In this document: in pieces, positions 53,150-53,563 of the stretch
Layout: each line of letters starts with the position of its first letter
How positions within the stretch are numbered: position 1 is the stretch's first letter
Source of the DNA: Eledone cirrhosa
Lineage: Eukaryota
DNA length: 64,000 nucleotides
Reading direction: 5' to 3'
NCBI GenBank assembly: GCA_964016885.1
Contig: OZ024745.1
Location: 11,594,001-11,658,000, forward strand
The notes under the pieces: model-generated
What the model saw: only the letters and a program-made list of their open reading frames with translations
Told to the model about the DNA's origin: nothing
Databases searched by the model: none
Position numbers and translations under genes: made by a program

Positions 53150-53563
53150 AAACACCTTTCCTCTATTCTCCAGAAAGCCAATACATATATATATATAACG
53201 GAGGAAATGTGGTAAGGAACCAGATAGACCATAACGCACCAGAGTACTCAATACTTGGGGTAGTAGAGTGGTTAATAGGAGAAAGTATGACCCCGACGGC
53301 AGAGCTCAAGCCGTTTCGACGGCTATTTCTGGACTAAATTAACATTTTTAGCCTGGTAAATAAATAGCCGAAGTTGTCAAGGGGTATTTCCTTATATGGG
53401 AAGATTGTATTTTCCCATATAAGGAAGTACCCCTTGACAAGCTACAATCTTCCCATATAAGGAAGTACCACTTGACAAGTTCGGCTATTTATTTACCAGG
53501 CTAAAAATTCTAATTTAGTCCAGAAATAGCCGTCGAAACGGCTTGAGCTCTGCCGTCGGGGTC
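52957..53563. mobile_element. Two family A copies: 52957-53095 (tail + arm) and the longest copy, 53197-53563, with a complete HHR in both arms
   Basis: 53290-53410 is inverted at about 53443-53563, with a stuttered turn at 53412-53441. Confidence 0.9.
53467..53562 (+). ncRNA. Type I hammerhead ribozyme with U3-A8 core (family A)
   Basis: ACC(C/A)C-TTGACAA-G tt CGGCTATTT loop AAATAGCCG t C-GAAAC-GGC ttgagctct GCC-GTC-GGGGT. Predicted cleavage after 53557; mirror copy at 53290-53385 on minus. Confidence 0.85.

Follow-up and report, generated by a model that had tools for sequence, protein, structure and literature searches.

A fold-back insertion with a U3-A8 hammerhead motif in Eledone cirrhosa derives from a Penelope-like retrotransposon by truncation and partial inversion

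The window analysed, 64,000 nt of Eledone cirrhosa contig OZ024745.1, contains an inverted repeat at 53197-53567 that is flanked by TA runs. The repeat is made up of a 215-nt minus-strand arm, a 33-nt duplicated piece and a 124-nt plus-strand arm (Table 1), and both arms carry a hammerhead motif of type I architecture, with three helices round the core and the ends in helix I. The elements of this motif, including the UUGACAA core in both arms and C17 of the plus arm, were found by sequence and descriptor scan where a first-pass annotation of the window had placed them, as was the single, different lesion ascribed to each arm, a C>A change in helix I at 53470 (plus) and G10.1>C at 53373 (minus). 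The minus arm has an additional G>A within distal helix I, and the plus arm stops 9 nt past C17, leaving the distal helix I strand absent. The motif is real, but neither arm is an intact ribozyme. A third, intact core 5' half in the duplicated piece had been overlooked. This piece likely arose when the template slipped from one CTTGACAA repeat of the element to another; both repeats are present in genomic copies.

Table 1. Coordinates of the fold-back insertion, its parts and related copies in the window.
Feature	Position	Strand	Details
Tailed arm, Penelope-like element 3' end	53197..53411	-	pseudo-LTR end, hammerhead motif and 78-nt tail
Type I hammerhead motif of tailed arm	53290..53385	-	core 53380-53374, G12 53317, C17 53295
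78-nt tail	53197..53274	-	C17+21 to C17+98
33-nt duplicated piece	53411..53443	+	helix I 5' strand, core 53434-53440 and G10.1, all intact
Inverted arm without tail, same insertion	53443..53566	+	96% identity with the tailed arm across 124 nt
Type I hammerhead motif of inverted arm	53467..53562	+	core 53472-53478; G10.1 53479; helix II 53482-53490 with 53524-53532, loop 33 nt; C11.1 53534; G12 53535; helix III 53538-53542 with 53552-53556; loop III 53543-53551, palindromic; C17 53557; helix I 3' strand 53558-53562
(TA)n target, left flank	53185..53197		window sequence
(TA)n target, right flank	53564..53573		window sequence
Short younger-lineage copy beside fold-back	52956..53094	-	cut off at about C17-40 in helix II; core 5' half absent
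Short fold-back, older lineage B	27531..27722	+	cut off at about C17-35; core 5' half absent
Tail-less copy, UUGAAAA core	11370..11477	-	cut off within helix I 5' strand

A relaxed type I descriptor gave three matches in the window, namely both fold-back arms and an unrelated canonical motif; 100 block-wise dinucleotide shuffles gave a mean of 0.08 matches and a maximum of 2, reached once. The unrelated motif (5813-5912, minus strand) is a type I hammerhead of another family, with an 8-bp helix I, a 5-bp helix III, a CUGAUGA core at 5904 and A17 at 5824. A minimal hammerhead motif with a CUGAAGA core at 7281 and a 2-bp helix III is also present at 7277-7319 on the plus strand, and an ORF remnant ∼200 nt before it (6256-7074) encodes a GIY-YIG domain, has a CX4CxxC linker and likely belongs to a Neptune-type Penelope element. 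Searches with Rfam detected no hammerhead family in the window at E<=1, and none on a U3-A8 copy or a C3-G8 copy at E<=10. The expectation that CUGANGA searches would miss the variant was borne out, and Rfam misses it too.

Hammerhead numbering and the dimer model used here are those of PMC4209133. Helix II begins with one G-C pair, followed by a 2x1 internal loop and 9 bp, and a further 7-bp hairpin lies inside its 33-nt loop; the G-C pair, the 9 bp and the loop length had been described correctly, the internal loop and the hairpin had been missed. Folding placed an internal loop in helix I after 5 bp, and no recognised loop 1-loop 2 contact was identified. When single copies were folded, the hammerhead lay 0 to 2 kcal/mol over the minimum in five of 11 and 3.6-8.5 kcal/mol over it in the other six; it was the minimum-energy fold for one copy of the youngest lineage and lay 1.1 kcal/mol over the minimum in two intact copies of the window's lineage. 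Folding z-scores ranged from -0.4 to -2.5. RNAalifold recovered helices II and III and missed helix I. Cofolding of two copies, a prediction without a concentration term, gave a double-hammerhead form via loop III.

Conservation was assessed over 216 distinct copies, of which 188 were assigned to 13 lineages by hand-made rules and 28 were left out. Divergence within lineages ranged from 10.7% (B') down to <1% in the youngest, which has U3-A8 with G7. The positions U4 G5 A6, A9, G12 A13 A14, A15.1-U16.1, H17 and G10.1-C11.1 were invariant in 13/13 lineages. None of the 11 fixed catalytic positions differed among the lineage majorities, compared with 43 of 75 other unpaired positions; the nominal Fisher p = 5e-4 is no true probability, as the lineages are related and several were found by core-fixing patterns. 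In two core-free searches, with 100 matches listed in each, changes at the fixed positions were confined to scattered single ones. All four bases occur at N7 among the 13 lineages. Three of 29 paired positions differed, with pairing kept in all, and the GAGCUC of loop III was invariant between neighbouring bases that vary.

Covariation was examined in 40 copies hand-picked from 176 to span the lineages, in which 91.1% of cells were paired, compared with 87.9% in shuffles (0 of 500). Helix II showed a G-C/A-U swap (19 copies with each pair) and, further out, U-A/G-C and U-A/A-U swaps; these mostly divide two lineage groups, and the outer two pairs of the helix were broken in 17/40 and 9/40. The five doubly changed pairs were not above shuffle (152 of 500). 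Covariation of all three stems had been proposed as a check on the motif, and in these 40 copies it was obtained for helix II, but helices I and III had no lineage-level double change. Lineage conservation and helix II covariation support a real hammerhead motif with U3-A8, and the hammerhead ancestry of the motif is almost certain.

Longer copies revealed coding sequence for a reverse transcriptase and a GIY-YIG endonuclease on the hammerhead's strand, ∼0.7-1 kb upstream of the hammerhead. The motif sits in a pseudo-LTR in sense orientation, and the ORF of full-length copies is flanked by a motif at either side, with the 78-nt tail running on into the ORF's 5' UTR. In a young copy (L347) the two pseudo-LTRs are 99% alike, with C17 at 2889 and 6007 (3,118 nt apart); the start codon lies 191 nt past the first C17 and opens an uninterrupted ORF of 719 aa. 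This ORF contains reverse transcriptase motifs, RWR, SDKT, a CNCPDRSIC linker (CxCX5C), a YIG motif, CNLC (CxxC) and CKH (CxH), the endonuclease being C-terminal. Of 30 loci retrieved with a probe for the N-terminal part of the ORF, 11 carried the tail together with the motif, whole or as its 3' part, directly upstream of the ORF. A Pfam search of the ORF gave no domain above threshold; 2,054 relatives were found at E<=1e-20, the best of which carries PF01541, and the ORF is ∼40% identical to many proteins ∼700 aa long. By eye, its N-terminal reverse transcriptase region looks like printed Hydra proteins.

Pseudo-LTR partial tandems, 5' inversions and a single-end tail, all marks of Penelope-like elements, were present, as were insertions in TA repeats; the tail is 78 nt, compared with 30-40 bp cited in the accessible text of PMC8557442. 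Judged by its ORF marks against the definition in section 11 of that paper, the element belongs to the Hydra clade. The Naiad clade was rejected because the Naiad endonuclease is N-terminal and the present one C-terminal. The canonical hammerhead of the Hydra clade was not seen among the 100 cores listed, CUGANGA occurring in 0/100. The fold-back, which had been annotated as a family of its own with its pseudo-LTR origin unrecognised, is a 5'-truncated, 5'-inverted insertion of this Hydra-clade Penelope-like element, and has no family of its own. Parts of the element, >=90% identical, also occur in contigs from a second organism, and the family is therefore not limited to one species label. 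Elsewhere in the window, the minus strand carries a remnant of a second, distant Hydra-type element (14093-15818; 37% identity to the family ORF over 205 aa) and LINE-type reverse transcriptase ORF remnants (17255-23182 and 60862-62135), and 31552-42704 is a homogeneous satellite in which a 38-nt unit is repeated 293.6 times with 97% matches.

Exact-pattern counts, which are lower bounds and for which reversed-pattern controls gave 0, yielded at least 28,102 tailed 3' halves in the 3.0-Gb genome and at least 7,929 core 5' halves, both arms counted. Thirty genomic copies had one common 3' end before (TA)n and variable 5' truncation, the end base of the tailed arm in the window being matched within a few nt by the 29 others; an inverted partner was frequent among them and stopped 78 nt short of the common end. 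Most family copies end inside helix II, with half of the core missing. The lineage B copy at 27531 is of this kind: it keeps the 3' half of the motif, as annotated, but not the core 5' half, which is present as UUGAUAA in longer copies of its lineage. Further short family copies, all without the core 5' half, are at 5250-5442, 29412-29601, 56170-56559, 57487-57671 and 62979-63121. The majority of copies are short inverted repeats within TA runs, the form expected if the fold-backs were MITE-like DNA transposons that carry a hammerhead by chance. Against this, the arms are continuous with the reverse transcriptase-endonuclease ORF and unequal in length by the 78-nt tail, the junctions vary between copies, and the motif is far above chance and covaries. 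The MITE assignment was rejected on the linked ORF, the unequal arms and the variable junctions, and we give it practically no weight.

The state of the 3-8 pair was determined in a flank-anchored census with the core left free, counted by hand over the 100 matches listed. There were 72 U3-A8 cores, 24 C3.A8, two U3.G8 (from one insertion) and two with another base at 3; C3-G8 was found in 0/100 of the matches listed. Among the U3-A8 cores were UUGAGAA (32), UUGAAAA (13), UUGACAA (10) and UUGAUAA (10), the rest being single lesions and one ambiguous core. UUGACAA itself, the conservation of which across copies had been named as a check, was not conserved, accounting for only 10 of the 100 listed. 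By pair 3-8, nine of the 13 lineages are U-A, including the window's, two are C.A and two U.G. G8 marks two rare, old lineages: U3.G8 is present in 10/11 copies of lineage C, and lineage B' has U3.G8 in 7/11 and C3-G8 in 2/11, with further B' copies recorded outside these 11. These lineages were found via a search for a base other than A at 8, which gave 104 matches vs 2,940 with A. CUGANGA itself turned up in one rare, old lineage and, beyond it, as isolated single changes. In lineage B, UUGAUGA may likewise reflect single changes; the two arms of one insertion differ at position 8, with A in one and G in the other. The idea that many young copies form a C3-G8 subfamily was considered and dropped, the 76 canonical-core matches being mostly chance upstream CUGANGA or single changes.

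A DNA tree of the endonuclease region (18 copies, 520 nt, midpoint-rooted) took the form of a ladder, from B' and B through C and the window's U3-A8 lineage to the C3.A8 lineages, with the youngest U3-A8 clade nested among the latter and node support of 98-100. On this tree the possibility that C3 arose twice was dropped. A protein tree with distant outgroups left the root unresolved. The simplest reading of the DNA tree, whose root lacks an outgroup and in which recombination is possible, is an early G8 state followed by U-A, one break to C.A and U-A again. The 3-8 pair is favoured, yet was dispensable for a time, since the youngest lineage descends through the C.A state, and this points to a ribozyme that is slow or only partly needed. 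We infer that selection on the pair is real but weak. To call U3-A8 compensatory went too far: position 8 is almost always A, yet 24 of the 100 cores listed have C at position 3. U3-A8 does keep the pairing, but it does not follow that the rate is kept: in a deep mutational scan, activity at pair 3-8 was rescued only by the C-G to G-C swap, according to the accessible text of PMC9901934. It is fairly probable that U3-A8 copies would cleave measurably, and cleavage of element RNA by the motif is probably slow.

All lineages might instead be fully active, including those with C3.A8, if the broken pair is offset by dimer formation, by the length of helix II or by a shift of register by one base (C3-G7). 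The GAGCUC palindrome is invariant, G7 occurs in 19 or 20 of the 24 C3 cores (hand count, 100 matches listed), and Penelope hammerheads are described as often having one more base between A9 and helix II (PMC4209133, accessible text). However, the DNA tree indicates that C3 arose once, on a G7 background, so that the C3-G7 link counts as one event; the register shift would take away N7, and the portion of PMC9901934 consulted reports low activity of single changes at 3 or 8. Full activity throughout is accordingly very unlikely. A wider proposal sees the family as a natural allelic series at 3-8 (C-G, U.G, U-A, C.A and back to U-A), with C3.A8 still cleaving through a palindrome-driven dimer or register shift and helix II acting as a reverse-transcription stop that yields tens of thousands of MITE-like fold-backs; we hold this to be unlikely, if less so.

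Insertions of the family end at C17+20 and C17+98, where in both cases a TAT is shared with the TA target as a microhomology, and loose ends in public DNA contigs were likewise at C17+20 and C17+98/100. Both ends are downstream of the cleavage site. By hand count, ∼76 of 100 tailed arms ran through the cleavage site to G12 or beyond, and a search of the 100 arms for 5' ends clustered at that site gave only 3/100 that start exactly at C17+1. As insertions continue through the cleavage site, the templates must have been uncut or rejoined RNA. The circular-template model in the accessible text of PMC4209133 fits these data, and incomplete cleavage fits as well. A different explanation is that the motif descends from a hammerhead whose cutting is no longer needed and that it serves on uncut templates as a folded handle, for example a dimer contact, a protein site or a priming scaffold. 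The passage of insertions through the cleavage site would agree with this, as would the place of C3.A8, with its 24 of 100 cores listed, on the main line of descent, the U3.G8 pair of old lineages, and the spread of Naiad elements without canonical hammerheads (PMC8557442, accessible text). On the other hand, the positions that never change in the 13 lineages are the single-stranded catalytic ones, with the adjacent N7 free, and the 3-8 pair seems to have regained Watson-Crick form more than once. A non-cutting handle is possible but doubtful.

The 5' stops of 30 tail-anchored copies reaching C17-30 or beyond (L281-L310) were concentrated at the top of helix II, where 23 fell within 22 nt, from C17-34 to -56; the remaining stops were at -75 (one) and at -110 or beyond (six). 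The clustering accounts for the shortness of most family members and for their lack of the core 5' half. Identical junctions were found in different lineages (L302, L307), which suggests repeated independent formation.

The reading that we prefer, with moderate confidence, takes the fold-back as a copy, truncated and in part inverted, of a Hydra-clade Penelope-like element, the terminal U3-A8 hammerhead of which would cut slowly and the RNA of which would be rejoined to a circle. The pseudo-LTR hammerhead would cleave the element RNA slowly after C17 to give unit-length RNA, possibly aided by an RNA dimer formed via the invariant GAGCUC palindrome of loop III. The ends of the unit-length RNA would then be joined to make a circular template; since the inserted DNA spans the cleavage site, either re-ligation or plain incomplete cleavage is required. 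Twin priming is a source of inversions. The TA target may prime two cDNAs, one at each TAT microhomology, which would be joined head to head to produce the fold-back, and a stop of reverse transcription at the top of helix II would leave most copies short and ribozyme-less. The full processing model merits moderate confidence at most.

The U3-A8 variant by itself is not new. What the family offers is a set of dated lineages that differ at one catalytic pair, with the ribozyme otherwise fixed; copy number is a rough measure of success, and cleavage rate could thus be compared with transposition success. It also demonstrates that a very abundant hammerhead family can evade Rfam and CUGANGA searches alike, and that MITE-looking short inverted repeats of TA-rich animal genomes can be Penelope ends. 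A literature search, mostly outside subscription journals, found no paper on the present family or the C3.A8 lineages. As far as the accessible texts go, U3-A8 Penelope hammerheads (2014, PMC4209133) and Hydra-element hammerheads (2021, PMC8557442) are already known; new are a Hydra element with a core that is not canonical, a 3-8 pair that has drifted through four states and a helix II that is a hot spot of truncation.

The closest known elements are Hydra-1_Obim and Hydra-2_Amil (Craig et al. 2021, PMC8557442, accessible text), which share with the present family the single ∼700-aa ORF with a C-terminal GIY-YIG domain, RWK-like and DKT motifs, the CxCX5C linker, CxxC and CxH, the TA target, the pseudo-LTR with tail, 5'-inverted copies and a sense hammerhead ∼100 nt from the 3' end. 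The same text considers that hammerheads in Penelope elements may process transcripts or be mere passengers. In Hydra elements the core is canonical CUGANGA (26/26 rows of File S2), helix II measures 3-7 bp and helix III is short. The core of the present family is YUGANRA; its helix II is long and interrupted, its helix III has 5 bp and closes a palindromic loop of 9 nt, its 3' UTR is ∼0.7-1 kb long and its unit 3.1 kb, and its flanks are unlike the printed Hydra-1_Obim hammerhead.

Natural U3-A8 variants were described by Perreault et al. (2011, PMC3088659, accessible text) as a covariation in nature and called active in vitro, and a helix II of one pair is described there too; U3-A8 is rare there but is the majority state across thousands of copies here. 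The Schistosoma Cercyon Penelope (Cervera and de la Pena 2014, PMC4209133) has the same U3-A8 core covariation, in about 1,300 hits, together with a pseudo-LTR and mostly scattered truncated copies with some close opposite-strand pairs, as here. Its motifs are minimal and without helix III, which is stable in the present family, and the accessible text makes no mention of C3.A8 or U3.G8 lineages; it reports poor cleavage in vitro by animal Penelope hammerheads. Dimeric Penelope hammerheads have been described by Lunse et al., as cited in the accessible text of PMC6765202. Finally, the non-LTR retrozymes (PMC7229834; bioRxiv 2026.07.22.740005; both as far as accessible) are alike in their type I hammerhead, their Penelope link and the precedent that they set for circular RNA. 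Retrozymes are short non-coding tandem repeats, whereas the present motif comes from an autonomous coding element whose short copies are inverted and have half of the ribozyme missing.
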